Below are positions 1,670 to 43,426 of a DNA stretch of 64,000 bases, in pieces. The translations under genes and the position numbers were made by a program. The stretch lies in sequence record OR621298; one strand, written 5' to 3'. The stretch is from Escherichia phage vB_EcoD-Elw. The notes under the pieces are model-generated. The model was not told where the DNA came from, did not search any database, and saw only the letters and a program-made list of their open reading frames with translations. How positions within the stretch are numbered: the first letter of the stretch is position 1; every line of letters starts with the position of its first letter.

Positions 1670-1675
1670 ATTAAA

Positions 1676-1828: not shown

Positions 1829-1845
1829 AGCTAACCTACCTTATT

Positions 1846-1922: not shown

Positions 1923-1931
1923 ATAATTCAT

Positions 1932-2117: not shown

Positions 2118-2144
2118 GCTTGTTTCCTCAGTTATTAATGAAAA

Positions 2145-2217: not shown

Positions 2218-2219
2218 TT

Positions 2220-2297: not shown

Positions 2298-2792
2298 ATA
2301 TAAGTCAGAACTAGAGTTAATACGTTCTAGATATTTACTAAGATCCCTAGAATTTATACTAAACCACTCATGTTCTTTTAAATCTTTGAAATACTGGTGA
2401 ATTAGTTTTTCACCTTTTCGTTTGTCAAACCAAAACGACCAATGCTCTAATTTATAATCCCTATATGGGGAATAGGTCTGATATTGAGCTAATCTCTCTT
2501 TTGGATTTTGACTCATACCTATTTTATACTGATTTTTCCATGCAGGATTACTAATACAGTATACAAAACCTTCAGAAATAGGAAGTTTATTTTCCTGCTT
2601 AAACTTTATAAAGGAAAGTGCGGCAAGTTTTCTCGAATACATAGTATTCGTATTCTTTTTGGTATTACCATTAGTTCCTGAAAGATTTATATATTCTTCC
2701 ATAAATCTTTGGATTAGTTCTGCGGTTATACAGAAAGGCCCATTAGTAACAACGCCTTTCTTTACCAAACTATCAAAAACTTTTGTATGCAC
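2274..2792 (-). CDS. T5orf172 / GIY-YIG-like domain protein
   Basis: 172-aa ORF with GTG start and AAGGAAAG RBS; segment FVYCISNPAWKNQYKIGMSQNPKERLAQYQ resembles the T5orf172 (MUG113) domain; 3' end overlaps the tRNA at 2220-2297. Confidence 0.6.
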   Translation of the reverse strand: MHTKVFDSLVKKGVVTNGPFCITAELIQRFMEEYINLSGTNGNTKKNTNTMYSRKLAALSFIKFKQENKLPISEGFVYCISNPAWKNQYKIGMSQNPKERLAQYQTYSPYRDYKLEHWSFWFDKRKGEKLIHQYFKDLKEHEWFSINSRDLSKYLERINSSSDLYGSLALIG

Positions 2793-2813
2793 TACTTCTT
2801 TCCTTTAGTAAAT

Positions 2814-2889
2814 TGGACGACCGCATGAGATTTGAACTCACATAAAAAGGATTTGCAATCCTTCGCCTAAGCCCTTCAGCCAACGGTCG
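2814..2889 (-). tRNA. tRNA-Cys (anticodon GCA)
   Basis: Anticodon arm AAGGA-TTGCAAA-TCCTT (perfect), T-arm GTGAG-TTCAAAT-CTCAT, acceptor CGACCGT/GCGGTCG, CCA. Confidence 0.75.
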
Positions 2890-2958
2890 GTTTATCTTGT
2901 TCTGTCATGTTGCTTCTCCAGTTCAATTTATGTAATTATTATACAGAACTTTTGGAAA

Positions 2959-3231
2959 CTAAGCAACTACATTTTTTAAGAATTTGATGCCTTTCTTTTT
3001 CTTCTTATATTTCCACGTTAATGGATTCTGTCGATTATGAACGCTTGAGATCTTTGTCTCGTCAAAGTTCTTCAATATCATGTAATCACAGGATAATTGT
3101 TCTAGTAGAATGTGATCACCGTCAAAAGCGTATACATAAGGCTGTTGACTAACACGATAATGATAGACTTTGTTAATTCTACGTTTCAGCGACTTATCAG
3201 CGCAGTAAATAAAGAAGTTTTCAGGATGCAT
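2959..3231 (-). CDS. hypothetical protein (about 90 aa)
   Basis: In-frame ATG at 3231 preceded by AAGGAG; the longer ORF would start at TTG 3246. Confidence 0.5.
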   Translation of the reverse strand: MHPENFFIYCADKSLKRRINKVYHYRVSQQPYVYAFDGDHILLEQLSCDYMILKNFDETKISSVHNRQNPLTWKYKKKKKGIKFLKNVVA

Positions 3232-3248
3232 CAGCAGCTCCTTCAATT

Positions 3249-3323
3249 TGGTGCACCCTGTTCGTATCGAACGAACCTCTCAAGCTCTTCAGGCAAGCGC
3301 TAATCCATCTCAGCTAAAGGTGC
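3249..3323 (-). tRNA. tRNA-Phe (anticodon GAA)
   Basis: Acceptor GCACCTT/AGGGTGC, D-arm GCTG..TAGC, anticodon loop CTGAAGA, T-arm GTTCG-TTCGATA-CGAAC, CCA; anticodon stem has two U-U mismatches. Confidence 0.6.
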
Positions 3324-3329
3324 AAATTT

Positions 3330-3406
3330 TGGCAAACCTACTAGGACTCGAACCTAGACCGTACGGTTTTGGAGACCGACATGCTGTCCAGTAACACTCT
3401 AGGAAT
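3330..3406 (-). tRNA. tRNA-Trp (anticodon CCA), tentative
   Basis: T-arm CTAGG-TTCGAGT-CCTAG, CCA, anticodon loop CTCCAAA; acceptor stem has two U-U mismatches, so possibly degenerate. Confidence 0.5.
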
Positions 3407-3414
3407 GCAGAAAT

Positions 3415-3491
3415 TGGCGTCCTGTGCGGGGATCGAACCCGCAAATCCTACCTTGAAAGGGTAGTGACTTTACCAGTTTGTCTAACAGGAC
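3415..3491 (-). tRNA. tRNA-Glu (anticodon TTC)
   Basis: Acceptor GTCCTGT/ACAGGAC, anticodon arm CTACC-CTTTCAA-GGTAG (perfect), T-loop TTCGATC, CCA. Confidence 0.75.
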
Positions 3492-3498
3492 TTAAATT

Positions 3499-3589
3499 TG
3501 GTGTTGGATGATGGAGTCGAACCACCCGAGACCCTTCCGAGTCGGCAGATTTACAGTCTGCTTCGCTACCTCTACGATACTAATCCAAC
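3499..3589 (-). tRNA. tRNA-Tyr (anticodon GTA), long variable arm
   Basis: 91 nt; acceptor GTTGGAT/ATCCAAC, anticodon arm GCAGA-CTGTAAA-TCTGC, long variable arm, T-loop TTCGACT, CCA. Confidence 0.75.
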
Positions 3590-3654
3590 ATATTTAGAAG
3601 TATTCAAAAATTCTCATTTAAACACTTTTAAATATGCTTTCAAATTAGGTAACT

Positions 3655-3663
3655 ATTATACCA
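3655..3663 (-). promoter_or_regulatory. extended -10 promoter (TGGTATAAT) for the tRNA-Tyr/Glu/Trp/Phe cluster
   Basis: Minus-strand TGGTATAAT about 65 nt upstream of the tRNA-Tyr 5' end. Confidence 0.4.
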
Positions 3664-3672
3664 AGTTTTAAG

Positions 3673-3711
3673 GCACTGAGCAAGTCAAATTTTAAAGAAC
3701 TTGCTCAGTGC
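3673..3711. other. perfect 13-bp inverted repeat (stem-loop) downstream of the 3720-3995 gene
   Basis: GCACTGAGCAAGT..ACTTGCTCAGTGC with 13-nt loop; no U-run on either side, so likely a processing or stability hairpin rather than a terminator. Confidence 0.5.
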
Positions 3712-3719
3712 TATATTAG

Positions 3720-3995
3720 TTAGTCGAACTTAGGAGTGACAGTTAAGGAGAACGGAAGTTCGAAAACTTCTTCACCCTCATTACTAACGGTAACTACACG
3801 ACCTTTAAGTTCAGACATTAAAATATCAATATCAGCTTTTGCATCTGGAGCCATGCCAGCTTCAATACATTTAGCTTTAACCTCCGGTAGAAGATCTACG
3901 TTATAGAGATAGAGCCACTCAATCTCACCTTCCCAGTCTTCCCAGGATTTGCAGATTGCACTTTCAATACCAGTTGCTACAACACGATTTTGCAT
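3720..3995 (-). CDS. hypothetical protein (91 aa)
   Basis: ATG at 3995 with GAAGGAG RBS and an upstream TTGCCT-18-TATAAT promoter. Confidence 0.55.
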   Translation of the reverse strand: MQNRVVATGIESAICKSWEDWEGEIEWLYLYNVDLLPEVKAKCIEAGMAPDAKADIDILMSELKGRVVTVSNEGEEVFELPFSLTVTPKFD

Positions 3996-4025
3996 TCGTT
4001 AACTCCTTCATCAATTTATACAACT

Positions 4026-4055
4026 ATTATATCAGAAATTTAAAGCAAAAGGCAA
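4026..4055 (-). promoter_or_regulatory. sigma70-type early promoter
   Basis: Minus strand TTGCCT, 18-nt spacer, TATAAT. Confidence 0.55.
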
Positions 4056-4085
4056 GTACATTTTTAAAAATTCTGTTTGGAGGAG

Positions 4086-4292
4086 CTAAACTCCAGATTC
4101 TTCAGCTAAGTCTAGGCTAATAAGAGTTATAGCCATAATTGCTGCACCGTGTTCTTTTTCTCCGGTGTTTTTAGCAGAGTCTATAATAGTCTTAATCTGT
4201 TCGTAATAGCCTTTTACTTCTTGTTCAATACCTGCCTCGGCTATCATGCCTTTAGTCATGATTCGTTGCATAGTAATTTCACGGTTAGCCAT
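4086..4292 (-). CDS. hypothetical protein (68 aa)
   Basis: ATG at 4292 with GGAGA RBS; start overlaps the stop of the upstream small ORF. Confidence 0.5.
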   Translation of the reverse strand: MANREITMQRIMTKGMIAEAGIEQEVKGYYEQIKTIIDSAKNTGEKEHGAAIMAITLISLDLAEESGV

Positions 4293-4452
4293 GATGTTTC
4301 TCCAGCTTCATTTTTAATAGTTTACAAATGAAATCAACGTCTTCATCTGTACCTAGATCTCTATCTTCAAGAGTTGCCTTGAAGTTTTTAGTCAATTCCA
4401 TGAGGATAACTTCTCTAGAACGACGTGTTGGCGGAGGTGGATGTCTATACAT
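4285..4452 (-). CDS. small hypothetical protein (55 aa, proline-rich N-terminus)
   Basis: ATG at 4452 with AAGGAAA RBS; MYRHPPPPTRRSREVILMEL...; stop overlaps the next start. Confidence 0.4.
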   Translation of the reverse strand: MYRHPPPPTRRSREVILMELTKNFKATLEDRDLGTDEDVDFICKLLKMKLEKHHG

Positions 4453-4467
4453 CTTATTTCCTTAGTT

Positions 4468-4544
4468 TGGTAGGGGTGGTGGGATTCGAACCCACAAAAC
4501 CTGAATTTTAAGTCCAGTACCTATGCCAATTCGATTACACCCCC
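4468..4544 (-). tRNA. tRNA with anticodon TAA (Leu-type anticodon on a short-variable-arm body)
   Basis: Acceptor GGGGGTG/CACCCCT, anticodon arm CTGGA-CTTAAAA-TTCAG, T-arm GTGGG-TTCGAAT-CCCAC, CCA; no long variable arm; D-arm unclear. Confidence 0.55.
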
Positions 4545-4551
4545 GTGTAGT

Positions 4552-4740
4552 TTAGTCAATTACTTTTGAGGCTTCAAGGTAGTCGATATAGTGTATGTTT
4601 TCTACCGTAATCATATAATCTGCCACTTTATCCATAGCTTGGGCTTCAGAGGTAGCTCTGGCTAACCTATATCCTTTTTTATATTCATCCGGGTATTCTC
4701 TATCTTGGATAAACACAACATAAACTATATATAGATCCAT
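4552..4740 (-). CDS. hypothetical protein (62 aa)
   Basis: ATG at 4740 with AGAGG RBS. Confidence 0.5.
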   Translation of the reverse strand: MDLYIVYVVFIQDREYPDEYKKGYRLARATSEAQAMDKVADYMITVENIHYIDYLEASKVID

Positions 4741-4759
4741 TTGTGACCTCTATTTAATT

Positions 4760-4837
4760 TGGTGGCTCCCCGAGGATTCGAACCTACGTACCTTCCGGTT
4801 ATGAGCCGGGTGCTCATACCATATGAGCTTGAGAACC
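4760..4837 (-). tRNA. tRNA with anticodon CAT (elongator Met or Ile-lysidine type)
   Basis: Acceptor GGTTCTC/GGGAGCC (two G-U pairs), anticodon loop CTCATAA, T-loop TTCGAAT with weak T-stem, CCA. Confidence 0.55.
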
Positions 4838-4843
4838 AGAATT

Positions 4844-4932
4844 TGGCGGAAGAAGCGGGAATCGAACCCACAAGGCTATATTTCAAACCGACAGATTAGC
4901 AATCTGCTGCAATACCGTTATGCTATTCTTCC
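4844..4932 (-). tRNA. tRNA-Ser (anticodon GCT), long variable arm
   Basis: 89 nt; acceptor GGAAGAA/TTCTTCC, anticodon loop TTGCTAA, long variable arm, T-arm GTGGG-TTCGATT-CCCGC, CCA. Confidence 0.75.
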
Positions 4933-4947
4933 GAATTTATAAGATAT

Positions 4948-4976
4948 ATTATATTAGAAATTTAGCTTCATAGCAA
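4948..4976 (-). promoter_or_regulatory. sigma70-type early promoter (TTGCTA-17-TATAAT)
   Basis: Minus-strand consensus motif directly upstream of the tRNA-Ser/tRNA-CAT pair. Confidence 0.6.
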
Positions 4977-5472
4977 GAAAATTTTTCAAGTTTTCGGTAG
5001 ACATCTCATCCACATCTACGGGAGAAACAAAGCCGTTTAATTTTCTAGCAAATTTTTCACCCGCAGGATCATTATCTCCGACAGCTACCAATTTAAAAGG
5101 TAGTAATTTCAGTTGCTTTAATAACGCTTTTCCTGGAGAAGAACCCAACATTGCTAGGGCTGGATAACCAGCATTATGTAACGCAACTGCCTTAAATACA
5201 GATTCAGCAATCAATACTACTTTTTCATCTCCATTGAGAGTTTCTAGTCCCCATACACACTGGGTAGTAGAATAAGTAAAGTATTTAGCTTCAAAGGGGC
5301 ACTTACCATGACCTTTTGGAGCAGAAGGATTATAAGTTTGATAGCCCCTCAACATCCCAGAGAAGTCATACAACGGGACTGTTAGCCATCCTTCCGGACT
5401 TAACCAGCAATGATATTTATCTGTATCAAATCCTCTAGATAAGAGGTGCTGTGTTAGCTCATCAACATTCAT
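4954..5472 (-). CDS. TOPRIM-domain protein
   Basis: Start placed at the internal ATG 5472 (AAGAGGA RBS) because the longer ORF runs into its own promoter; conserved Glu (VVLIAESVF) and DxD (VAVGDNDPAG) TOPRIM motifs. Confidence 0.6.
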   Translation of the reverse strand: MNVDELTQHLLSRGFDTDKYHCWLSPEGWLTVPLYDFSGMLRGYQTYNPSAPKGHGKCPFEAKYFTYSTTQCVWGLETLNGDEKVVLIAESVFKAVALHNAGYPALAMLGSSPGKALLKQLKLLPFKLVAVGDNDPAGEKFARKLNGFVSPVDVDEMSTENLKNFLAMKLNF

Positions 5473-5502
5473 ATTTGGTTCCTCTTTCAAATTTATAGAT
5501 AT

Positions 5503-5531
5503 ATTATACAGAGAATTTAGCATTCAAGCAA
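5503..5531 (-). promoter_or_regulatory. sigma70-type early promoter (TTGCTT-17-TATAAT)
   Basis: Minus-strand consensus motif; start site about 25 nt upstream of ATG 5472. Confidence 0.6.
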
Positions 5532-5647
5532 TCAAATTTTTTAACTTTTTAGAGGAAAATCATAGGGCACTTAAGGATAGCAGATAAGTGGTGAGGACCA
5601 AAATTTGTGACCCCACTAAAAATTCAGGGGCAATTTTTAAAGACCCC

Positions 5648-5676
5648 TTGACATTTTCGCTGGGGTAGTGTAAAGT
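5648..5676 (+). promoter_or_regulatory. candidate promoter of the plus-strand island (TTGACA-17-TAAAGT)
   Basis: Perfect -35 TTGACA with 17-nt spacer and weaker -10 TAAAGT; short inverted repeats just upstream. Confidence 0.45.
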
Positions 5677-5737
5677 ATATGTTATGGATGAGTGATCAAA
5701 GAGACACACATTTTCTATATACTAGGAGGTGTCAAAA

Positions 5738-6721
5738 ATGACAGAAGAAGTAGCTAAGAGTCCTGAGACCGTCGCTAGCGTTGCAGCAGAACTGCACCGT
5801 CACGAGGAATCAGATAAGAAAAAGTGGGAGAAGGTCAGAGCCTACGAAGAAAAACATCGTGAACACGATGATGAAGAAGATGATGATGAACATTGTCATA
5901 AATATGGAAAACATAAAATGCAAGAACCAGTAAACGTATTTACTAGTGGCTTCCCTGGCCTACTGGGTGGTTACCCAGCAAACGCAGGTGCTTTCGGTGG
6001 TGAAGGTATGGGACTATTCGGAGCTATCCTAATCGGTGCTCTATTAACAGGCGGATTCGGTGGTTTCGGTGGATTCGGTGGACGTGGTGTAGTTGGTGAT
6101 GGTACCGCAGTTGATGCAGTACTTCAGAACCAAGATACCGCTAGTATTCTAGCAGCTATTAACACTACTCGTACAGAAGCTAACCAGGGTACTGGAGCTG
6201 TTTTAAGCGCAGTTAACAATGGGTTTAGCCAGACATCCCAAAACCAGAGCCGTGATACTCAGTCTGTACTAACTACGATCTATGGTACAGGTGCTAATCT
6301 GTCTAATCAGATCTGTCAGGAAACTCGCAACGTTATTCAGGGTCAGTTCGATCTTTCTCGCCAGATTGATCAATCTTTCGCAGCTAATCAGATAGCTCGT
6401 GCACAAGATAAGTTTGATTCTGCACAGATCGCTTTCCAGCAGACTTTACAAACTAATAACCAGTTTGCCGCTGTTCAGGCTCAGATGTGTGCTAACCAGA
6501 ACTCTCTGGAACGTCAGATCGCTGAATGTTGCTGTGAACTTCAGACTGCGATCGCTGGTGTAACTACTGCGCGTATTCAGGATGAGTTAGATGCATGTCG
6601 CCTACGTGAAGCAATCGCTGCGGGTAACGGTGCTAACGGTCAGGTAATTAATCAAATCGCTGTAAGTCTTGGTGCTATCACTCAGACTCTGGCTGGTCTG
6701 CAGGCTAAACTGCCGGCTTAA
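5738..6721 (+). CDS. glycine-zipper protein with His/acidic N-terminus and Gln/Asn-rich C-terminal half (327 aa), function unknown
   Basis: ATG 5738 with AGGAGG 8 nt upstream (track start 5729 is GTG); hydrophobic GxxxG-repeat segment GLFGAILIGALLTGGFGGFGGFGG; CCC motif; GGT/CGT/CTG-biased codon usage unlike neighbours. Confidence 0.7.
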   Translation: MTEEVAKSPETVASVAAELHRHEESDKKKWEKVRAYEEKHREHDDEEDDDEHCHKYGKHKMQEPVNVFTSGFPGLLGGYPANAGAFGGEGMGLFGAILIGALLTGGFGGFGGFGGRGVVGDGTAVDAVLQNQDTASILAAINTTRTEANQGTGAVLSAVNNGFSQTSQNQSRDTQSVLTTIYGTGANLSNQICQETRNVIQGQFDLSRQIDQSFAANQIARAQDKFDSAQIAFQQTLQTNNQFAAVQAQMCANQNSLERQIAECCCELQTAIAGVTTARIQDELDACRLREAIAAGNGANGQVINQIAVSLGAITQTLAGLQAKLPA

Positions 6722-6742
6722 TATTAAGGGGAGGAGCCCATT

Positions 6743-7159
6743 ATGAGTAAATATGGTTTTGTAAATAACGGACTTAATCAAAGTATGGGCTCCCAGCAGC
6801 CCATTCCGGGTCTGGATAACCCCTACTTACAACAATTGCAACAGCGTTTAGCAGAAGCGCAACAGATGCAGCAACAACTCCAGCAAAACCCTGGAAGTGT
6901 GAGTCCTATGCAAATGATGCAGCAAATGAGCGGGCAGTCGCAAATGCCTCAACAAATGCAGCAACAGGTGCCGCAGCAGCAAGCTCAGCAGCAAACCCAA
7001 CAACCGCAGGTTTCTGCGGAAGGACAGGCAGTACTAGCCCTTTTCGAAGACTTCGCAAAGACAGAGGATGGTAAGCAGCTTGTATCACTTATGGGTAAGT
7101 TTAATAGCTTCTGCCAAAGCCAGGTTGCAAAAGCTCAAAATAGTGGTAATAACTCCTAA
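6743..7159 (+). CDS. Gln-rich low-complexity protein (138 aa), function unknown
   Basis: ATG 6743 with AAGGGGAGGAG RBS; long QQ/MQ runs, ordered C-terminal 50 aa. Confidence 0.7.
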   Translation: MSKYGFVNNGLNQSMGSQQPIPGLDNPYLQQLQQRLAEAQQMQQQLQQNPGSVSPMQMMQQMSGQSQMPQQMQQQVPQQQAQQQTQQPQVSAEGQAVLALFEDFAKTEDGKQLVSLMGKFNSFCQSQVAKAQNSGNNS

Positions 7160-7168
7160 GGAGGAATT

Positions 7169-7363
7169 ATGTGTTGCAGAAAATCTGTTTCGTGCTGCCC
7201 AATGCCTGTAGCACGTTGTTGCTCTCCAGCAATGTTTACGCAAATACCGGCGTTCAATCCGTTTGCCTTTAAGCCTACTCTTATCCTGCCCCCTAGAGTA
7301 GATTTTCAGTCAAGATTGGCCTCCCGTATGGGTGGTTGCTGTAATAAGAGTATATGGTTCTGA
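7169..7363 (+). CDS. Cys-rich small protein (64 aa, four CC dipeptides), function unknown
   Basis: ATG 7169 with AAGGAGG RBS; MCCRKSVSCCPMPVARCCSP...GGCCNKSIWF; followed immediately by an intrinsic terminator. Confidence 0.6.
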   Translation: MCCRKSVSCCPMPVARCCSPAMFTQIPAFNPFAFKPTLILPPRVDFQSRLASRMGGCCNKSIWF

Positions 7364-7379
7364 AGAACCAAACAATAAA

Positions 7380-7413
7380 GCCCCTAGTCGAAAGACTTAG
7401 GGGCTTTTCTTTT
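7380..7413 (+). terminator. rho-independent terminator ending the plus-strand island
   Basis: Stem GCCCCTA/TAGGGGC with 11-nt loop, then TTTTCTTTT. Confidence 0.7.
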
Positions 7414-7420
7414 ATCTTAA

Positions 7421-7458
7421 ATACAGAAAAGCCCTGCGCTCTCCAGGAAACGCAGGGC
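7421..7458 (-). terminator. rho-independent terminator after the SPFH gene
   Basis: Stem GCCCTGCG/CGCAGGGC followed on the minus strand by TTTTCTGTAT. Confidence 0.65.
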
Positions 7459-7483
7459 TTATTTCAGATGTTACATGCGGGTA

Positions 7484-8431
7484 TTACTTATTACGCATAT
7501 CCATAATCATTTGGCCATCATAGCCAGTGCCAACCACAGTCTGCGGTACACCACCTTGGTATTTCTGAGCACGAATCATTTCAACTTCCAGTTGCTTCCA
7601 GCGAATCATCTCAGGAGTAATGGTACGTTGCAACGCGGCGTTAGCTTCAGCTTCTTTCTTAGCTGCGTACAGTTTGGCATCTGCGTCACGCTCATTGGCA
7701 ATAGCTTGGTTATTACGAGCTTCGCGATCTGCTTCTGCTTGTTTAACCTTCTGCTGTGCTTCTTGTTCAACACGAGCCAGTTCAGCTTTCGCAGCATTAA
7801 CTTGCTCTTCACGAACTTTGGTATTCTGTACCTGTTCCATGATTACCGGTGGCAAAGTAATATCCTGAAGGAATACCTGCTTAACTGTATAACCATATGG
7901 GCGTGCATACTCTTCAACTTCCTGTTGAATTGCAGTTTGCAATTGAGCCTGAATTTTAGCATCAAACAAATCTTGTGCTTTAGGTACAGACTTACCAAAC
8001 TCACGAATAGTAGACAGTAATTTTTCAGTTACATATTTGTCTAGCGCTTGATCCTGAGTACCTGCGTTAATACGGTTAATCGGTGCCTTAGAACCATCAA
8101 ACTGCAACATAACAGTCAGGTCAACAGTGGATTTAAACTTATCCTGACTAGGAACCTGAAGTTTATCTAATTTTAGAGCAATATCTTTAGTACTAAAAGT
8201 ATCGAAAGAAGCAAAAGGATTTACAATATGAAAGCCGGGTAGTACTGGGCTAGGGTCAACTTTACCCAGGAAAGTCTGGGTTTTAACAGTACCGTCTTGA
8301 ACAACGGTATAAGAGTTAAAGGCTAGAATCAAGCCTGCTAAACCAACTATAGCACCAATACCCCAACGTTTAATAGTACGAATTACTTTCTGCTCAGAAG
8401 TCAGTTCTTTCATATTTTTAGTATTAAACAT
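7484..8431 (-). CDS. SPFH/band-7 (stomatin/prohibitin/HflC-like) membrane protein
   Basis: 315 aa; N-terminal hydrophobic helix (WGIGAIVGLAGLILAF), central SPFH-like region, C-terminal Ala/Glu/Lys/Gln coiled coil; ATG 8431 with AAGGAAA RBS. Confidence 0.8.
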   Translation of the reverse strand: MFNTKNMKELTSEQKVIRTIKRWGIGAIVGLAGLILAFNSYTVVQDGTVKTQTFLGKVDPSPVLPGFHIVNPFASFDTFSTKDIALKLDKLQVPSQDKFKSTVDLTVMLQFDGSKAPINRINAGTQDQALDKYVTEKLLSTIREFGKSVPKAQDLFDAKIQAQLQTAIQQEVEEYARPYGYTVKQVFLQDITLPPVIMEQVQNTKVREEQVNAAKAELARVEQEAQQKVKQAEADREARNNQAIANERDADAKLYAAKKEAEANAALQRTITPEMIRWKQLEVEMIRAQKYQGGVPQTVVGTGYDGQMIMDMRNK

Positions 8432-8465
8432 ATATTTCCTTTGTTTTAGTTACAGTTAATAAAAT

Positions 8466-8540
8466 TGGCCGAGGTGACAGGATTCGAACCTGCATAAAGG
8501 AATTTAGAAGACTCCTGCCTCTCCATTAGACTACACCCCG
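8466..8540 (-). tRNA. tRNA-Arg (anticodon TCT)
   Basis: Acceptor CGGGGTG/CACCTCG, anticodon arm GGAGT-CTTCTAA-ATTCC, T-arm GCAGG-TTCGAAT-CCTGT, CCA. Confidence 0.75.
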
Positions 8541-9042
8541 TTTAAGTATTTTTAAGAACTCTCGTAAAAACTCTTAAAAATACAGACGATACCGGGAGAG
8601 TCATAAGTCTCACTCATTAAGTATTTCAAGACAAAATACAGTAACGTCTATTATTTTCCAGTTTAAGTCAAGGTGACTTAGTGGTTATGTCCTGCGGTAT
8701 ACTGAGGACTCGGTTAGGATTGGGGTCATGACTTCCCGCCTTTTGCTGCTACTCAACAGGAGTTATCGCGAATTACCTGTGCTATTGTGCACCATTAGTG
8801 ACATCTCTCATGTCAGCATTTCCCACTTTGTGGATAGCTTGAAAAACTACTCCGATATGGAGAAAGAACTTCACTATCCTAGAATACCTTCTAAAGTTCT
8901 TCTTTAGCCTGGACATAGTTAAATCGTAATAAAACTATTCAGCAGACTAGTTGGTTAGTCTGGAACCAACTACCGCGTGGTTTAGGCAGTGCGCAACTAA
9001 CCTCGGAAGCTTTTACGTTAAAAGCATCAGTTATCCAGTTCT

Positions 9043-9114
9043 TACCGACCGTAGGATTCGAACCTACATCTTCCACCAGTTACGGCTTGATAATACCAAT
9101 TATACTAGGACGGC
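9043..9114 (-). pseudogene. degenerate tRNA-like element (no CCA, no anticodon stem)
   Basis: Canonical T-arm GTAGG-TTCGAAT-CCTAC and 6-bp acceptor GCCGTCC/GGTCGGT, but no convincing anticodon arm and no encoded CCA. Confidence 0.35.
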
Positions 9115-22055: not shown

Positions 22056-22349
22056 AAATAACACTCCTATAGTGTACTTCGCTAACAGAGGATCAACAAA
22101 AAGATCTTGTTTATCAACTTACAAATATATTATACCAATATATACAGTAAAAAGCAACTACAATTTTAAATAAGCCTATGATATTGCATTTAAATAAAAA
22201 ATTTGCTTGCTTTTAACGTGAGATGTGTGATACTAGATAATCATTTTATATCGCGTGCACGAGTGCGTGATTATACAATTTTTAATAGAAATTGGCAAAT
22301 AAAATTTTTTGACTCAGATCATGTTGCAGAACTTTATAGTAAAATATTG

Positions 22350-34754: not shown

Positions 34755-35535
34755 GATGAAAATCGAAATTCCAACACAATGTCCCTCTTGTGGTTCTAAG
34801 CTAGATCTTGTCAACGGACAATTATTCTGTCGTAATAAGTCCAACTGTCCAGCGCAATCAAGCAAGTTAATTGAGAACTTCTGTTCAAAAATGAAGTTAA
34901 AGGGCTTTGGCCCAAAAACTATTGAGAAGCTGGAGCTGACGAAGATTTCAGAACTATTTTACCTAACCGAAGAAGATTTGGTTAGAGCCGTGGGTAGCAA
35001 GGTTGCCGCTAAGTTAATTAGCGAATTAAATACTAAAGTTCGCGGAGACATTGACTTTGGTTCAGTTCTCGGTTCTTTAGGAATCCCTCTAATTGGAGAG
35101 GTTGCAGCAAAGAAATTATCCCAAAATTGCACTAGCTTTCACGATGTGAAGGCTGACGGCAAGGCTGGAGAAAATTACAAAGCCTGGCTAAATTCCCCAC
35201 AAGGCAAGGATGTTATTAAACTACCGTGGAAATTTTCAACTGGTATTAAGGGCACTAAAGCTGACGTCATCATTACAGATGAATTAGTTGCCCAGCCAAA
35301 TGGAATCGCGGTATGTATTACCGGATCTTTGCAAGATTTTGCAAATCGAACGGATGCAACAAACTATTTAGAAGGTCTAGGATATACGGTTAAGAAATCC
35401 GTTACCAAAGACGTCAAATACCTAATCTGTGAGGATGAATCAAAACGTTCTTCCTCATCTTATAAGAAAGCCGAAACGAATGGGATAGAAATCCTGTCGA
35501 TTAAAGAACTATTGGAGAAAAATAATAATGTCTAA
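34755..35535 (+). CDS. NAD-dependent DNA ligase, C-terminal (Zn-finger/HhH/BRCT) subunit
   Basis: Start at ATG 34755 (AAGGAAG RBS); Cys4 finger CPSCGS...CRNKSNCPAQ, HhH-like region, BRCT-like C-terminus. Confidence 0.8.
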
Positions 35536-36295
35536 ACTGAACTGGAACGTAGAAGGTGTAACCGAGTCTCTGAAAGCAAAAGCCACTGCTCTGGGTGTTT
35601 CTGTAATCTCTCAAGAACAGGTAGCTGCTATCGCTGCTGAACTGGCTGCTGAAACTGGCAAAGATGTTACTGCTCGCTCTGTTGGCTCTAAACTGCGTAA
35701 AGAAGGTTTTGAAGTACAGAAAGCTAACGAAGTACAGAAATCCCCGTGGACTCCTGAGCAGGAAGCTGAACTGGTTGATTTCCTGAACGCTCATGCTGGT
35801 CAGTATACCTATGCTGAAATCGCTGCTGCTGTAGCTGGTGGTCAGTTCGGTGCTAAGCAGGTACAGGGTAAGATCCTGAGTCTGGAAATGACCGCTTCTG
35901 TTAAACCAACTGAAAAAGCTGCTGCTGTTCGTTCCTTTACTCCGGATGAAGAAACTGATTTTGTTAATCAGGTTGTTGCTGGTGCTACTATTGAAGCTAT
36001 CGCTGCTCACTTCGGCCGCAATATCAAGCAGATCCGTGGTAAAGCTCTGAGCCTGCTTCGTGAAGGTCGTATTGCTGCTATGCCGGTACAGGAAACTTCA
36101 AGTGCTAAAACTCGTGAAGATCTGTTAGAAGGTCTGGATCTGGTTAACATGACTGTTGCTGAGATCGCTGAGAAAACCGGTAAGTCTGAGCGTGGTGTTA
36201 AATCTATGCTGTCTCGTCGTGGTCTGGTTGCTAAGGACTATGATGGTGCCGCTAAGCGTGCTAAACTGGATGCAAAAGCTGCGGCTGCTGAATAA
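35528..36295 (+). CDS. Ala-rich protein with three HTH-like repeats (255 aa), probably abundant DNA-binding protein
   Basis: Three related segments (VSVISQEQVAAIAAELAAETGKDVTARSVGSKLRKEG; ATIEAIAAHFGRNIKQIRGKALSLLREG; MTVAEIAEKTGKSERGVKSMLSRRG); strongly E. coli-like codon usage; followed by a strong terminator. Confidence 0.65.
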   Translation: MSKLNWNVEGVTESLKAKATALGVSVISQEQVAAIAAELAAETGKDVTARSVGSKLRKEGFEVQKANEVQKSPWTPEQEAELVDFLNAHAGQYTYAEIAAAVAGGQFGAKQVQGKILSLEMTASVKPTEKAAAVRSFTPDEETDFVNQVVAGATIEAIAAHFGRNIKQIRGKALSLLREGRIAAMPVQETSSAKTREDLLEGLDLVNMTVAEIAEKTGKSERGVKSMLSRRGLVAKDYDGAAKRAKLDAKAAAAE

Positions 36296-36312: not shown

Positions 36313-36346
36313 AAGGGGAGGGGGCTATGCTCCTTCCCCTTTTTGC
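36313..36346 (+). terminator. rho-independent terminator (GC-rich 10-bp stem plus U-run)
   Basis: GGGGAGGGGG..CTCCTTCCCC stem with the ATG at 36327 in its loop, followed by TTTTT. Confidence 0.6.
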
Positions 36347-36377: not shown

Positions 36378-37850
36378 ATGACCTTGTTTAACGTGCAAGC
36401 TGTAGTGTTGAAGATGCTTCTAGCTTCCGAACAGAAGCAAATAGCATTGGAAACATTCTCAAAACTGCATAAAGATCATTTTAATGACGCTTTCTCCTCA
36501 ATTTACCAAGCCGTCCAGAATTATTATAAAAAATATAACACAATGCCGTCCATTGACGCACTTATGCTTGAAGCTAATAGGAACGCCCGCCTTTCTCAAG
36601 CTCTAGTCGTCTTAGCTAACACTCAAATTCCAGAAGTGAGCATGGAACAGGCACTTGAAGTCCTAGAAGCCGAATATACACAGGATTTATTCCTGAAGCT
36701 TCTAGAAACAGACGTGCTTCAAGATTTAACAATGCTGGATCAGGGAGAAATTCTCAACCGAGTTGCCTCCCTTCACTTAAAATTAGAAGAGAAAGTAACG
36801 AATACTGGAAAAGTATTCAACGCAGATAACATGCGTATTTTCCAGAGAGAAGAAGATACCAAACTGAACTTAATCGCTCTTGGTATTTGTAATGAGTTCG
36901 ACGCTCAAATTGGTTTAGCTCGCACAGAAACGTTACTGCTTGGTGGTTGGCGTGGTACTGGTAAATCCATTATCTGTTCAAACATACAGGTTCAGCAATA
37001 TTTGAATGGAGATATTGCTCCATACTTCTCAATTGAGATGAAAGAACACGAAGTATTTAGACGTAATCTAGCCATGTTAGCTGGTGTATCAGCACTAGCA
37101 ATGCGTAATAATACTCTAGAAGGTGCAGCTCTGTTGAGATTAGCCAGAACTAGAGCCAGAATGTTTAATGGTGGTGAAGAGCTTTTTGATAACTTCGTTA
37201 AACAGTACACGATGGCTAAGATGAGTGATTTCTACGATATGGAGAGTAAGCTAATAGAGGGATATGAACTACATACTCCTATGATTATCGTTTATGACCC
37301 TGAACTGTCCATTACAACAGTTGACGTAGAATTAAATAAATTAGTTGCTAGATATGGTGATAAAGTTACAGTAGCTTTACTGGACTATATTAACCAAACC
37401 CGACTTCCAGATTCTAAAACCATTGATATGTATGACTGGAAAGAACAGATGGTTGTTAGCTCGTCTTTCAAATCTATCTGCCAGAAACATAACGTGGCTG
37501 GTGTAGCTCCTTACCAGATCGATCAAGATGGTAGAACACGTATGTCAAAGGGGATTCTTGATTCCGCAGACATGGCTGCTAATCTTAATGCTGCAAAAGC
37601 TGATAATGGTCAAGGTGCTATTATGTTTGACTTCGTTAAGACTCGTTCTTCTGATAGCGTGAAGTTTATGCCTAAGATGAACTGGGAAACTCTGCGAATG
37701 GATAATACAACTAACCTAGCAATGGAAGATATATCTCAAATGGAAGCTGAGTTCGTTATCCCTATTGAGAAGGATAAGCCGGCTCAACCTAAACGTGCTA
37801 AGAAAGACAAAACTGAAAATTTAACAGGTGAACAGGCCAGCGATATATGA
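36378..37850 (+). CDS. DnaB-like replicative helicase (start uncertain)
   Basis: Walker A GGWRGTGKS and Walker B-like IIVYDPE; longest ORF starts at ATG 36327 inside the terminator hairpin; ATG 36378 follows AAGGAG with a very short spacer. Confidence 0.65.
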   Translation: MTLFNVQAVVLKMLLASEQKQIALETFSKLHKDHFNDAFSSIYQAVQNYYKKYNTMPSIDALMLEANRNARLSQALVVLANTQIPEVSMEQALEVLEAEYTQDLFLKLLETDVLQDLTMLDQGEILNRVASLHLKLEEKVTNTGKVFNADNMRIFQREEDTKLNLIALGICNEFDAQIGLARTETLLLGGWRGTGKSIICSNIQVQQYLNGDIAPYFSIEMKEHEVFRRNLAMLAGVSALAMRNNTLEGAALLRLARTRARMFNGGEELFDNFVKQYTMAKMSDFYDMESKLIEGYELHTPMIIVYDPELSITTVDVELNKLVARYGDKVTVALLDYINQTRLPDSKTIDMYDWKEQMVVSSSFKSICQKHNVAGVAPYQIDQDGRTRMSKGILDSADMAANLNAAKADNGQGAIMFDFVKTRSSDSVKFMPKMNWETLRMDNTTNLAMEDISQMEAEFVIPIEKDKPAQPKRAKKDKTENLTGEQASDI

Positions 37851-38737
37851 GTAGAATAACAGAACTACTTGATCTGAAAGGCATTGAATATAAAGACACA
37901 GGTGGGGACATCCTCATCTGTTGTCTCAATCCAGATCATGACGATAAACACCCAAGTTTGCGTATTGATCCTGAAACAGGTATTATGCACTGCTTGAGTT
38001 GTGGCTTCGGTAAAGGTATACCGAGCATTTACCATTATTTTAATGAGACTCAGTACCGACAGTCTCCAAGACTATCACAGGTACGTAAAAAGATTTCAGA
38101 GATTAGGAATGGATCAACGAATCTTGCAATTCCTGAATCTGCTTACCTTTTCGAAGGTGATTTCCGAGGTATAAGTTCTAAGACCTTGAAGAAATATTTT
38201 GCTTTCCAACACCAAGCAGACTGGGAAGGCAGAATTGTATTCCCAATCACAGATGCTGTTGGACGCAATATCCTATTTTTGGGTCGTTCTATAAACAGTT
38301 CTGCCCCTCCTAAATACTTAGTAAAACCAAAACAAGTTTCACCGCCAATTTTTCCTGTACGATATAATACTCCAGTTCTTATTCTAGTTGAAGGCATCTT
38401 TGATATGCTGAACCTAGAGGATAATGGTATAGACTATGCTTCTTGCTGCTTTGGTACACATCAGTTTACTTCGGATAACATTGCAGATAAGTTCAGTCCT
38501 TATATTATTGCTGGGGTAAAAGTTGTTGTTATCTTACTAGATAATGATGCTTCTGGTAATAAAGCTGCACAAGCATTGGCTAAGCTAATTCGTACAAAAA
38601 CGCGTTTAACACCTGTAGTTGCTAACTTCCTCCTGCCTGAAGGCAAAGATCCAGGTGATTTAAACAAAGATGAAATTGATATGTTAGCAAAACGTATTGA
38701 AATTTTAGTTGCTGAATCGCTTAAAGATTTGGTATAA
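37847..38737 (+). CDS. DnaG-like DNA primase (Zn-finger plus TOPRIM)
   Basis: 296 aa; Zn finger CCLNPDHDDKHPSLRIDPETGIMHCLSCG; TOPRIM motifs ILVEGIFDM and LLDNDASGNKA; ATGA-coupled to the helicase. Confidence 0.85.
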   Translation: MSRITELLDLKGIEYKDTGGDILICCLNPDHDDKHPSLRIDPETGIMHCLSCGFGKGIPSIYHYFNETQYRQSPRLSQVRKKISEIRNGSTNLAIPESAYLFEGDFRGISSKTLKKYFAFQHQADWEGRIVFPITDAVGRNILFLGRSINSSAPPKYLVKPKQVSPPIFPVRYNTPVLILVEGIFDMLNLEDNGIDYASCCFGTHQFTSDNIADKFSPYIIAGVKVVVILLDNDASGNKAAQALAKLIRTKTRLTPVVANFLLPEGKDPGDLNKDEIDMLAKRIEILVAESLKDLV

Positions 38738-38738
38738 T
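38709..38738 (+). promoter_or_regulatory. promoter with extended -10 (TGGTATAAT)
   Basis: TTGCTG, 18-nt spacer, TATAAT, inside the primase 3' end. Confidence 0.5.
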
Positions 38739-38742
38739 ATAT

Positions 38743-38786
38743 TGGTAAGTTAGAGAAGAAACACTGAAGTTATACTTACTTACCAA
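38743..38786 (+). promoter_or_regulatory. 9-bp inverted repeat (stem-loop) in the DNA polymerase 5' leader
   Basis: TTGGTAAGT..ACTTACCAA with 26-nt loop; 3' arm abuts the AAGAGG RBS of the TTG-initiated polymerase gene. Confidence 0.45.
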
Positions 38787-38799
38787 GAGGAGATTAAAT

Positions 38800-41367
38800 T
38801 TGAAAATCGCAGTAGTTGATAAAGCTCTAAACAACACTCGTTATGATAAACATTTCCAGCTATACGGCGAGGAAGTTGATGTATTCCATATGTGTAACGA
38901 GAAGTTATCTGGTCGTTTGCTTAAAAAGCACATTACTATTGGAACACCAGAAAACCCATTTGATCCGAATGATTATGATTTTGTTATACTAGTAGGTGCT
39001 GAACCTTTCCTGTACTTCGCAGGTAAGAAAGGCATTGGTGACTATACTGGTAAACGTGTAGAGTATAATGGATATGCTAACTGGATTGCGAGTATCAGCC
39101 CAGCCCAGTTACACTTTAAGCCTGAAATGAAACCAGTCTTTGATGCAACAGTAGAGAATATCCACGATATTATCAATGGTCGTGAGAAGATTGCAAAAGC
39201 TGGTGATTACCGTCCTATTACTAACCCTGACGAGGCGGAAGAATATATCAAGATGGTGTATAATATGGTTATCGGACCTGTAGCATTCGACTCCGAAACC
39301 TCAGCACTATACTGTCGAGATGGTTATCTGCTTGGCGTTTCTATGTCTCACCAAGAGTATCAGGGTGTATATATCGATTCTGATTGTCTCACAGAGGTTG
39401 CAGTATATTATCTCCAGAAAATTCTGGATAGTGAAAACCACACTATTGTTTTTCACAACTTGAAGTTTGATATGCACTTTTATAAGTACCATCTGGGACT
39501 TACTTTTGATAAAGCACATAAAGAACGCAGGCTCCATGATACTATGTTGCAGCATTATGTTCTAGATGAGCGTCGTGGTACTCATGGCTTGAAATCTCTA
39601 GCAATGAAGTATACCGATATGGGCGACTATGACTTTGAACTAGATAAGTTCAAGGATGATTACTGCAAAGCACATAAAATCAAGAAAGAAGATTTCACAT
39701 ATGATTTAATTCCGTTTGATATTATGTGGCCTTACGCTGCAAAAGATACAGATGCTACCATACGTTTGCACAACTTCTTCTTACCAAAAATTGAGAAGAA
39801 TGAAAAACTTTGCAGTCTGTATTATGATGTTCTAATGCCTGGTTGTGTATTTCTCCAGCGTGTTGAGGATCGTGGTGTACCTATTTCTATTGATCGTTTA
39901 AAAGAAGCTCAGTACCAGTTAACTCATAATCTGAATAAAGCTCGTGAGAAGCTGTATACTTATCCAGAAGTCGTTCAGCTAGAGAAAGATCAGAACGAAG
40001 CGTTTAACCCAAACTCTGTTAAGCAGCTACGTGTTCTTCTGTTTGATTATGTTGGCTTAACCCCAACAGGTAAATTGACGGATACTGGAGCAGACTCTAC
40101 AGATGCAGAAGCTCTGAACGAATTGTCTACGCAGCATCCAATTGCTAAGACTCTACTAGAGATTCGTAAGCTGACTAAGCTGATCTCTACTTACGTTGAG
40201 AAGATTCTTCTGAGCATTGATGCTGATGGTTGCATTCGTACTGGCTTCCACGAACACATGACTACTTCTGGTCGTCTGAGTTCTTCTGGTAAACTGAACC
40301 TGCAACAGTTACCTCGTGATGAATCTATTATCAAGGGTTGTGTGGTTGCACCACCTGGATACCGTGTAATCGCATGGGACTTAACAACTGCGGAAGTTTA
40401 TTATGCTGCTGTTCTATCTGGTGATAGAAATATGCAACAGGTATTTATCAACATGAGAAATGAACCTGATAAATACCCTGACTTCCACTCTAACATCGCA
40501 CACATGGTATTTAAGCTCCAATGCGAACCTCGTGATGTTAAAAAGTTATTCCCAGCTCTGCGTCAAGCAGCTAAAGCAATCACCTTTGGTATTCTGTATG
40601 GTTCTGGCCCAGCTAAAGTAGCTCATTCTGTTAACGAAGCTCTTCTGGAACAGGCTGCTAAGACAGGCGAACCGTTTGTAGAGTGTACTGTTGCAGATGC
40701 TAAAGAGTACATTGAAACTTACTTCGGTCAGTTCCCGCAGCTTAAGCGTTGGATTGATAAGTGCCACGATCAGATCAAGAATCATGGATTTATCTATAGT
40801 CACTTTGGTCGTAAACGTCGTCTGCATAATATCCACTCCGAAGACCGTGGTGTTCAGGGTGAAGAAATCCGTTCTGGATTTAACGCAATCATTCAGTCTG
40901 CTTCTTCTGATAGCCTCCTTTTAGGTGCGGTAGATGCAGATAATGAGATCATTTCTCTTGGCCTAGAACAAGAGATGAAGATTGTTATGCTGGTTCATGA
41001 CTCCGTAGTTGCTATTGTTCGTGAGGATTTGATCGACCAATACAATGAAATCCTGATTCGTAATATTCAGAAAGACCGTGGTATCAGTATCCCTGGCTGT
41101 CCGATTGGTATTGATTCTGATTCTGAGGCTGGAGGTTCTCGTGACTACTCCTGTGGTAAGATGAAGAAACAGCATCCATCAATCGCTTGTATTGATGATG
41201 ATGAATATACTCGTTATGTCAAGGGTGTATTACTTGATGCAGAGTTCGAGTATAAGAAACTAGCTGCAATGGATAAAGAGCATCCAGATCATAGCAAGTA
41301 CAAGGATGATAAGTTTATTGCTGTATGTAAAGATCTGGATAACGTGAAAAGGATTCTCGGTGCTTAA
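38800..41367 (+). CDS. family-A DNA polymerase with 3'-5' exonuclease domain
   Basis: 855 aa, TTG start with AAGAGG RBS; exo motif VAFDSETSAL; polymerase motifs FNPNSVKQL, FHEHMTTSGRLSS, KAITFGILYG, VHDS. Confidence 0.9.
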   Translation: MKIAVVDKALNNTRYDKHFQLYGEEVDVFHMCNEKLSGRLLKKHITIGTPENPFDPNDYDFVILVGAEPFLYFAGKKGIGDYTGKRVEYNGYANWIASISPAQLHFKPEMKPVFDATVENIHDIINGREKIAKAGDYRPITNPDEAEEYIKMVYNMVIGPVAFDSETSALYCRDGYLLGVSMSHQEYQGVYIDSDCLTEVAVYYLQKILDSENHTIVFHNLKFDMHFYKYHLGLTFDKAHKERRLHDTMLQHYVLDERRGTHGLKSLAMKYTDMGDYDFELDKFKDDYCKAHKIKKEDFTYDLIPFDIMWPYAAKDTDATIRLHNFFLPKIEKNEKLCSLYYDVLMPGCVFLQRVEDRGVPISIDRLKEAQYQLTHNLNKAREKLYTYPEVVQLEKDQNEAFNPNSVKQLRVLLFDYVGLTPTGKLTDTGADSTDAEALNELSTQHPIAKTLLEIRKLTKLISTYVEKILLSIDADGCIRTGFHEHMTTSGRLSSSGKLNLQQLPRDESIIKGCVVAPPGYRVIAWDLTTAEVYYAAVLSGDRNMQQVFINMRNEPDKYPDFHSNIAHMVFKLQCEPRDVKKLFPALRQAAKAITFGILYGSGPAKVAHSVNEALLEQAAKTGEPFVECTVADAKEYIETYFGQFPQLKRWIDKCHDQIKNHGFIYSHFGRKRRLHNIHSEDRGVQGEEIRSGFNAIIQSASSDSLLLGAVDADNEIISLGLEQEMKIVMLVHDSVVAIVREDLIDQYNEILIRNIQKDRGISIPGCPIGIDSDSEAGGSRDYSCGKMKKQHPSIACIDDDEYTRYVKGVLLDAEFEYKKLAAMDKEHPDHSKYKDDKFIAVCKDLDNVKRILGA

Positions 41368-41857: not shown

Positions 41858-43206
41858 AAGTTGTTATATCTAATAAAGCCTATTTCAAGCCCGATGATGA
41901 ACTTTGGGATTATTGTAGTAAGCAAACCACTTATCACATAGAGACAATGACTAGTAAATACCCTATTATGTACAAGAATAGTGGTGTTGTTGCCAAAGAG
42001 ATTAAGTGGATTCCTATTACGCGTCTGGACTTACTAGATGCTAAAGGAGTAAAATACGAATTAGTAGATAAACGCACATTAGCTCCGGTAGCTATACCAG
42101 AACCTAAGTTCAAGCTGCGTGAAGAAGATCAGCTTCCAATATATGAAGAATGTGACGATACCTGTATTATTAATGGTAAACCTGGATTTGGTAAAACTAT
42201 CCTAGCCCTTGCACTTGCGTATAAATTTGGCCAGAAAACTTTGGTAATCTGTACAAATACATCTATTCGTGAGATGTGGGCAGCAGAAGTTCGTAAATGG
42301 TTTGGGTTTGAACCAGGCATAATAGGTTCTGGGAAATATAACATTGATCCACCAATTGTGGTCAGTAATATTCAAACAGTGAATAAACATGCGAATAATC
42401 TTTCTAAAGTATTCGGTACTGTTATAGTTGATGAAGTTCACCATTGTGTAGCTACAACTTTCACTAACTTCCTAGAAATATCCTGTGCTCGCTATAAAAT
42501 TGGACTATCCGGCACATTAAAACGGAAAGACGGTCTACAAGTTATGTTCAAAGATTTCTTTGGATATAAGATATTTAGTCCGCCGGTTAATAATACTGTT
42601 GCACCTACAATCCATAGGTACTCCGTACCTGTTGAGTTATCAGGAAACCAAAACGTACCATGGGCATTACGTGCTAACGATGTGTATAATCATCCTGAAT
42701 ATCGAGAAACTATTATAAACCTAGCACATTTATATGTGAATATGGGGCATAAAGTACTCATTGTAAGTGATAGAACAGAGTTAATCCAAACAGTACTAGA
42801 AGCTCTTGCACAGCGTGGTGTTACAACATATGAAATTATAGGGGCAACCCACTTGGATGACCGATTAAAAATTCAAGAAGATATAGCAAAAGGTGGTCCT
42901 TGTGTACTTGCAGCAGCTCAAAGTATCTTCTCTGAAGGTATTTCCCTTAATGAGCTATCTTGTTTAATAATGGGAAGCCTCATTAATAATGAATCTCTCA
43001 TTGAACAGCTTGCAGGCCGTGTTCAACGTATTGTCGATGGTAAACTCGACCCTATTGTTGTAGATCTAATTATGAAAGGTGGTACTGGGCTAAGACAGGC
43101 TTCTGGGCGTATGGCAGTATATCGTAATAACGGGTGGAAAACTATTACCATGACTCCTGAGAAAGCAGTTCAATTAGCTAAAATTGCATTTGGCAATAGC
43201 TCATAA
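41854..43206 (+). CDS. SF2 DNA helicase (T5 D10-like)
   Basis: 450 aa; Walker A NGKPGFGKT, DEVH box VIVDEVHH, C-terminal helicase motifs. Confidence 0.8.
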   Translation: MKVVISNKAYFKPDDELWDYCSKQTTYHIETMTSKYPIMYKNSGVVAKEIKWIPITRLDLLDAKGVKYELVDKRTLAPVAIPEPKFKLREEDQLPIYEECDDTCIINGKPGFGKTILALALAYKFGQKTLVICTNTSIREMWAAEVRKWFGFEPGIIGSGKYNIDPPIVVSNIQTVNKHANNLSKVFGTVIVDEVHHCVATTFTNFLEISCARYKIGLSGTLKRKDGLQVMFKDFFGYKIFSPPVNNTVAPTIHRYSVPVELSGNQNVPWALRANDVYNHPEYRETIINLAHLYVNMGHKVLIVSDRTELIQTVLEALAQRGVTTYEIIGATHLDDRLKIQEDIAKGGPCVLAAAQSIFSEGISLNELSCLIMGSLINNESLIEQLAGRVQRIVDGKLDPIVVDLIMKGGTGLRQASGRMAVYRNNGWKTITMTPEKAVQLAKIAFGNSS

Positions 43207-43289
43207 ATGATGTATAATATATACATAAATTTGAGAGAGAAAGTTTCGGATTGATAAGAAAGTCCGAAGCAGAAAAATAAAAATTTTAG

Positions 43290-43319
43290 TTGCTAAATTC
43301 TCTCGAAATCTAGTATAAT
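43290..43319 (+). promoter_or_regulatory. sigma70-type promoter (TTGCTA-18-TATAAT), second of a tandem pair
   Basis: Preceded by another TGTATAAT element at about 43211-43218. Confidence 0.55.
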
Positions 43320-43426
43320 ATATACATAAATTCGAGGAGAAAACAAAAATTAAATTCTTCGATTATGAAAAGCTATACTTACTAGCTAGAGGAAATTCCG
43401 ACCTAATTATTAAGCTATTCAAAAGA

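Follow-up and report, generated by a model that had tools for sequence, protein, structure and literature searches.

Between the DNA primase gene and the DNA polymerase gene of Escherichia phage vB_EcoD-Elw (sequence record OR621298) lies a short inverted repeat, and the question that it raises is whether it acts as an RNA structure and, if so, what such a structure would do for the polymerase gene that follows. The stretch analysed, referred to below as the window, comprises 64,000 nucleotides (nt) of this T5-like phage (Tequintavirus). The original prediction placed a stem-loop against the ribosome-binding site of the polymerase gene, noted the weak TTG start of that gene, and tentatively likened it to the operator hairpin through which the T4 DNA polymerase represses its own translation. 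Comparison with related phages shows the hairpin to be, by its conservation and covariation, a selected and gene-specific stem-loop of the sense-strand RNA.

The repeat is as described in all but one detail. Its 9 base pairs (bp) are perfect, TTGGTAAGT at 38742–38750 being fully complementary to ACTTACCAA at 38778–38786, and it does adjoin the polymerase ribosome-binding site, with the 3' arm ending at 38786, the Shine-Dalgarno sequence beginning at 38787 and the TTG at 38800; the loop, given as 26 nt, actually measures 27 nt (38751–38777). The whole stem-loop of about 45 nt (38742–38786) is predicted to contain three helices, the first with 3 G-C pairs among its 9 bp. Its minimum free energy is −10.7 kcal/mol when the RNA begins at 38742 or earlier and −9.1 kcal/mol from G38744, with z-scores for the former of −1.65 to −2.7 that vary with the chosen ends. 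Its parts, and the Shine-Dalgarno sequence that follows, are these:

38742 to 38750, + strand: 5' arm of helix 1, TTGGTAAGT (perfect complementarity; covariation).
38778 to 38786, + strand: 3' arm of helix 1, ACTTACCAA (perfect complementarity; covariation).
38753 to 38777, + strand: structured, sequence-conserved apical part (minimum-free-energy fold; RNAalifold consensus).
38753–55 with 38775–77, + strand: helix 2 (minimum-free-energy and consensus fold).
38760–62 with 38769–71, + strand: helix 3 (minimum-free-energy and consensus fold).
38763 to 38768, + strand: apical loop ACUGAA (minimum-free-energy and consensus fold).
38787 to 38792, + strand: Shine-Dalgarno sequence GAGGAG of the polymerase gene (duplex with the anti-Shine-Dalgarno sequence −9.1 kcal/mol; unpaired in all folds).

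Like the Shine-Dalgarno sequence, the UUG start codon is single-stranded in every fold. Processing by RNase III is unlikely, the helices being too short and interrupted.

Taken by itself, the repeat in the window sequence is no more than chance; the window has 24 perfect inverted repeats of at least 9 bp with loops of up to 40 nt, and dinucleotide shuffles yield 9.7 ± 3.1. What raises the hairpin above chance is its conservation and covariation in relatives. Primase-polymerase junctions were compared from Tequintavirus, Epseptimavirus, Klebsiella (Sugarland-like) phages, the Providencia phages PR1 and PSTCR5, Proteus phage Stubb, Pectobacterium phage My1, several Vibrio Demerecviridae and metagenomic contigs, a scan of metagenomes contributing almost no additional lineages; My1, whose leader hairpin is weak (z = +0.9) and not alignable, was excluded from the pair counts. 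Conservation, which the original prediction had named as a check, extends to five lineages, the T5/Eps7, Klebsiella, Providencia, Proteus and Vibrio phages. The promoter TTGCnn-N17/18-TGnTATAAT is retained in all compared lineages, and in each of the five the helix starts 1–4 nt past the −10 element. The distance from the helix to the Shine-Dalgarno sequence is variable, from 0 to about 40 nt, and is 0–3 nt in all enterobacterial lineages. Other Demerecviridae have short unstructured leaders, also where an HNH endonuclease gene has been inserted ahead of the polymerase gene.

When 10 distinct leaders are aligned by MAFFT without supervision, the helix is in register apart from Stubb (one column off); the alignment has 92% of the helix cells paired, against 30–53% with slid 3' partners, and contains compensatory double changes at 5 of the 9 helix pairs. 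The covariation score of 0.593 compares with 0.244 in shuffles, none of 500 of which scored as high. An alignment fitted to a covariance model agrees with these pair counts, and RNAalifold, run on the enterobacterial set, independently predicts helix 1, its consensus also having a C-G pair of helix 3 replaced by U-A in the Providencia and Proteus phages. Providencia phage PR1 is mismatched at two outer pairs. Wobble cells are 10 of the G·U type on the sense strand against 1 of the A·C type, and the conserved entity is for that reason taken to be the sense-strand RNA and not a palindrome of double-stranded DNA.

The sequence itself is under purifying selection. Nucleotide diversity among 32 unique T5-like sequences falls from 0.18 at the third codon positions of the genes on either side to 0.013 in the leader and to 0.004 in the hairpin, which is thus about 40 times less variable than synonymous sites. 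Its variants in this set are three singletons, of which A38778G retains a U·G pair, and the 27-nt loop holds a single singleton variant. Between T5 and the Klebsiella phages the hairpin is 87% identical, and the segment encoding the polymerase N-terminus is 39% identical at third positions and 81% at first and second positions. A blastn search with the 61-nt leader returned 527 phage records, including 82 from Klebsiella and 4 from Providencia phages; the adjacent 61-nt coding segment returned 443, with hardly any Klebsiella phages. These leader data imply that the loop sequence is constrained beyond what pairing alone would require. The hairpin is also single-copy: the covariance model has exactly one match per genome, always upstream of the polymerase gene, with no second match in the 64-kb window, and the loop 23-mer is likewise present a single time in the window and a single time at each related locus. 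An operator serving a whole regulon was rejected on these counts.

The sequence immediately upstream of the helix is the early promoter Ppol, which is carried in the last codons of the primase gene and has the following elements:

38709 to 38714, + strand: −35 element TTGCTG (fits the T5 consensus TTGCTw-N17/18-TATAATA).
38730 to 38738, + strand: extended −10 element TGgTATAAT (from the sequence; TGnTATAAT is conserved from T5 to the Vibrio phages).
38739 to 38743, + strand: ATATT discriminator (T5 early promoter signature, PMC7472727).
38745, + strand: putative +1 G, within the 5' arm of the hairpin (T5 RefSeq feature convention).

An 18-nt spacer separates the −35 and −10 elements, and the primase stop codon TAA (38735–38737) lies inside the extended −10 element. 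The records of T5 (NC_005859, 70987–71061) and AKFV33 carry a promoter feature here, and Ppol was detected as an early promoter by primer extension in T5-infected cells (Klimuk et al. 2020, PMC7472727); the ATATT discriminator is present in all known T5 early promoters (PMC7472727), and a conserved +1 region, TAAATT, has been described for T5 promoters (PMC3326045). Promoter features in the T5 RefSeq record are 75-nt intervals running from −55 to +20, as checked on PN25, where +1 falls seven nt after TATAAT. Applied to Ppol, this convention puts +1 at T5 position 71042, that is, at G38745 of the window. From the annotation convention and the spacing we therefore infer that transcription starts inside the 5' arm of the repeat, at a G that is the seventh nt after the −10 element and is itself paired in the fold; RNA started at Ppol would lack the outer 3 bp of helix 1.

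The signature formed by the −10 element and discriminator, TATAATATATT, has 20 occurrences in the window against 5.3 expected, a fourfold enrichment. Sites of this type are found, for example, at 443, 9333, 10846, 12173, 15913 and 22124 on the − strand and at 24348, 31123 (the classical PN25 promoter), 38733, 43213 and 43314 on the + strand; they lie mostly on the − strand below about 22 kb and all on the + strand above about 24 kb, as in a divergent early-transcription region. The interval 43190–43400 carries two T5-type promoters in tandem, their −10 elements lying at 43213 and 43314, with a hairpin at about 43232–43260 between them, and a second leader of more than 100 nt whose own initial transcribed region is paired and which holds a 6-codon open reading frame (ORF; ATG at 43366, MKSYTY*). 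This leader shares at 43374 the 10-mer TATACTTACT with the 3' side of the polymerase hairpin, followed by AGAGGA; the sharing is not significant alone (2 copies against 0.33 expected, matched in 6 of 100 shuffles). Another T5-type promoter, at 22060–22134 on the − strand, has an initial transcribed region, TGTAAGTTG, similar to that of Ppol, and its long leader holds a hairpin, GATAAACAAG...TTTTGTTGATC.

The Vibrio phages of the pVp-1, River4 and JSF10 types carry a homologous 5' arm (GAGGTAATTCGG...) in a 13-bp helix that is closed by a variable tetraloop and followed by a U-tract, and the scan calls this helix an intrinsic terminator, as at 1425–1454 of one such locus (L043), where TTTTTTATTT follows; the polymerase ribosome-binding site lies about 40 nt beyond it. 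In the Vibrio phage loci L042–L046, L006 and L007 the conserved promoter is directly followed by an intrinsic terminator about 100 nt before the polymerase start, and the 5' arm of the terminator contains the predicted start site. RNA from that promoter would miss the outer 3–4 bp and gain a spacer before the U-tract, so that the arrangement may terminate read-through transcripts and spare the gene's own. The Vibrio phages also have a second conserved motif, CCCAT(A/T)nTAATTGTAAGGA, before the polymerase ATG.

A different kind of junction is found in two metagenome contigs, L091 and L093. Some 130 nt ahead of the polymerase start, what precedes the −10 element bears no relation to the 3' end of the primase gene and supplies its own −35 element, TTGCTA, and the leader is identical to that of T5 from TATAAT on; this switch suggests that a recombination or insertion took place precisely at the promoter. 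One nt is also inserted at the start codon of L091 (AAATTTAG), which may be an error of assembly.

We tentatively suggest, as the likeliest role, that the hairpin acts in cis and gives the polymerase mRNA a structured 5' end and a cistron boundary. Lying between the primase stop and the polymerase ribosome-binding site, it sits on the initial transcribed sequence of Ppol, and transcripts begun at about G38745 would emerge already paired at the 5' end, in a helix of 6–7 bp with two small helices above it. Such a paired end would, in E. coli, be shielded from the 5'-end-dependent decay carried out by RppH and RNase E. Read-through RNA from the primase gene would fold the complete 9-bp helix, and in either transcript the Shine-Dalgarno sequence and the UUG would stay open 3' of the helix, the ribosome-binding site being framed and not occluded. 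The T5 lineage would have lost the U-tract and gained the sequence-conserved apical extension, which suggests an additional, sequence-specific partner. In favour of this interpretation, what stays constant across the family is the distance of the helix to the −10 element and start site, and not its distance to the ribosome-binding site.

Two known systems help to place such a structured 5' end. The work of Emory and Belasco is said to have described 5'-terminal stabilising stem-loops of E. coli mRNAs, of the ompA type; the polymerase leader resembles these in the predicted placing of a helix no more than a few nt from the start of the mRNA and in a free ribosome-binding site. Generic T5 early promoters such as PN25 share with Ppol the −35 element, the extended −10 element and the ATATT discriminator, and the 5' arm of the hairpin is a variant of their conserved TAAATT +1 region, followed by GAGA. 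The leaders of the PN25 type are about 25 nt long and unstructured, as they are at most other T5-type promoters in the window, with a Shine-Dalgarno sequence at +10, whereas the polymerase leader is 55 nt long, its first motif resembling a Shine-Dalgarno sequence is degenerate, and the hairpin arises from a 3' arm complementary to the 5' one.

Three considerations weigh against a structured 5' end. From the putative +1 at G38745 the fold is weak (−4.9 kcal/mol, z = −0.18), which also sets it apart from stem-loops of the ompA type. The outer pairs upstream of that start covary, so that selection may act on the read-through RNA and not on the RNA started at Ppol. Finally, the loop sequence is conserved in the polymerase leader and is not needed by ompA-type stabilisers, and a plain stabiliser cannot account for its near invariance.

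The foremost alternative is a translational operator, in which a protein bound at the conserved apical part and at the adjacent ribosome-binding site would repress polymerase translation; we consider this possible but doubtful. The protein could be the T5 polymerase itself, in an autogenous arrangement like that of T4, or another phage or host RNA-binding protein. The two genes concerned are:

37847 to 38737, + strand: DNA primase gene, DnaG-like (ORF list; Toprim and CHC2 zinc-finger matches in Pfam; primase annotation in T5 and AKFV33).
38800 to 41367, + strand: DNA polymerase gene, 855 amino acids, TTG start (Pfam PF00476 and PF01612).

An operator is in keeping with the single-copy, gene-specific nature of the element, with an apical sequence conserved well above the needs of pairing, and with the end of the helix 0–3 nt before the Shine-Dalgarno sequence in all enterobacterial lineages, and there is a precedent in the autogenous control of T4 gp43 and gp32 (PMC3014915). 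Like the T4/RB69 gene 43 operator, the element belongs to the leader of a replicative polymerase gene of a phage, where it forms a hairpin directly 5' of the ribosome-binding site, with an apical sequence conserved in close relatives. Of the likeness to T4 that the original prediction drew, this geometry and the apical conservation stand; membership of the T4 family does not, in view of polymerase family, size and loop. The Pfam matches of the polymerase, DNA_pol_A and DNA_pol_A_exo1, make it a family A enzyme with a 3'-5' exonuclease, whose closest solved structures are Klenow and Taq, and not a family B enzyme such as gp43. The hairpin here is about 45 nt long with three helices and an ACUGAA loop, as against 18 nt in T4 and 16 nt in RB69 with a UAAC-containing loop (PMC3014915), and has no sequence similarity to theirs. 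Operators of the T4 type lie a little upstream of the ribosome-binding site and overlap it; here the helix ends at 38786 and the Shine-Dalgarno sequence starts at 38787, an adjacency retained in the enterobacterial lineages, and the distant Vibrio homologue, a terminator with a variable tetraloop, is some 40 nt away. An operator would also have to work without the outer 3 bp in RNA started at Ppol.

Nor is the hairpin tied to the weak start codon. The T5 annotation has the gene begin at this TTG (38800), which in the alignment falls on the ATG of the polymerases of Klebsiella and Proteus phages, and relatives with ATG starts keep the hairpin. The polymerase of Providencia phage PR1 (L037) has an apparent TTG start 9 nt upstream of the aligned position (MSSLKIAV...), and TTG starts thus seem to recur in this gene. 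The specific version of the operator in which the family A polymerase of T5 itself binds the apical part and the ribosome-binding site in autogenous translational control, drawn by analogy, is improbable. If true, it would represent autogenous control of a Pol I-type replicase, independent of T4 gp43 and re-using a former terminator hairpin in its own promoter. Literature searches on T5 polymerase autoregulation, on the polymerase N-terminus and TTG start, and on T5 start-site maps returned only Klimuk et al. 2020.

If selection acts on read-through RNA, as the covarying outer pairs upstream of the putative start may indicate, the hairpin could instead be a boundary element that works solely on read-through transcripts. 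It would once have been a terminator or insulator separating the helicase-primase unit from the polymerase gene, with the polymerase promoter nested on its 5' shoulder, and would in T5 now be a processing or 3'-protection site or largely vestigial. The terminator-like Vibrio helices, with their 13 bp, tetraloop and U-tract, fit such a history, as does the full stem being far more stable than the promoter-started form; yet PR1 is mismatched at two of the outer pairs, and a diversity of 0.004 is not expected of a vestige, so that on balance we regard a pure boundary element as unlikely. With intrinsic terminators and intercistronic hairpins the window hairpin has in common its position immediately beyond the stop codon of the preceding gene and its Vibrio homologues, which score as terminators; it differs in having only 3 G-C pairs among 9, a structured 27-nt loop and a 3' flank, GAGGAGATTAAAT, without a U-tract. 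A present-day intrinsic terminator in the window was accordingly rejected: a scan of 37500–40000 called none, even though the phage uses canonical GC-rich terminators elsewhere.

A DNA-level element, either a promoter-proximal escape or shut-off signal or a palindromic protein site with incidental RNA pairing, has more against it, and its probability is low. The 5' arm and the beginning of the loop (GGTAAGTTAGAGAAG) are similar to the generic T5 initial transcribed region CATAAATTTGAGAGAGGAG, a conserved TAAATT at +1 has been described (PMC3326045), and T5 early promoters undergo shut-off (PMC7472727), but the compensatory double substitutions and the G·U pairs confined to the sense strand indicate pairing in RNA, conservation reaches +42, and the half-site sequences differ between lineages.

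Still less probable is a leader mini-ORF beginning at the CTG/TTG at 38764, the translation of which would unfold the helix and be coupled to initiation at the polymerase gene. The YTG in the apical loop is conserved, and in the Klebsiella and Providencia phages it opens a 7-codon ORF ending in TAA just before the Shine-Dalgarno sequence; in T5, however, the start would be CTG, in frame with the polymerase, neither frame nor stop is conserved, and the putative Shine-Dalgarno sequence GAGAAG pairs with the anti-Shine-Dalgarno sequence at weaker than −3 kcal/mol in the T5, Klebsiella and Providencia phages. The loop of Proteus phage Stubb (L039/L005) does have AGGAGG (−10.2 kcal/mol with the anti-Shine-Dalgarno sequence) 4 nt before a TTG, which speaks for a mini-ORF and possibly marks a real upstream ORF in that phage. 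A functionless chance repeat, compatible with the roughly 10 comparable repeats expected per window and with the modest fold z-score, is effectively refuted by the comparative data: the helix covaries, its wobble pairs favour the sense strand, purifying selection on it is strong, and its position is conserved from genus to genus.

The segment 38300–39300 is 99.7% identical to Salmonella phage Tennessee and 95–98% identical to many Tequintavirus genomes. At 94–9114 on the − strand 15 tRNA genes are clustered, corresponding to the T5 tRNA region. Upstream of the helicase and primase genes, a strong terminator-like hairpin (13 bp with 8 G-C pairs, then TTTTTG) lies at 36313–36341, after the stop of the ORF at 35528–36295. 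The mechanically listed helicase ATG (36327) falls within the loop of this hairpin, and the real helicase start is therefore probably further downstream; no T5-type promoter is visible between the terminator and the helicase-primase genes.

The leader stem-loop is real and conserved, is unannotated and in no Rfam family, and was not found in literature searches. Rfam has nothing overlapping 38739–38802 at E ≤ 10, the whole window giving only tRNAs at gathering thresholds, and the hairpin is not annotated in the T5, AKFV33 or Sw2 records. T5 is a classical model phage and Ppol one of its reference early promoters, and post-transcriptional control in T5 is essentially unexplored; the hairpin exceeds the adjoining coding sequence in conservation, belongs specifically to the replicative polymerase gene, and can be traced to a terminator of distant relatives. 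As a new RNA motif it could enter annotation pipelines for several hundred Demerecviridae genomes. It gives a handle on how T5-like phages set the dosage of their polymerase, and on how a terminator nested in a promoter can turn into a leader element.

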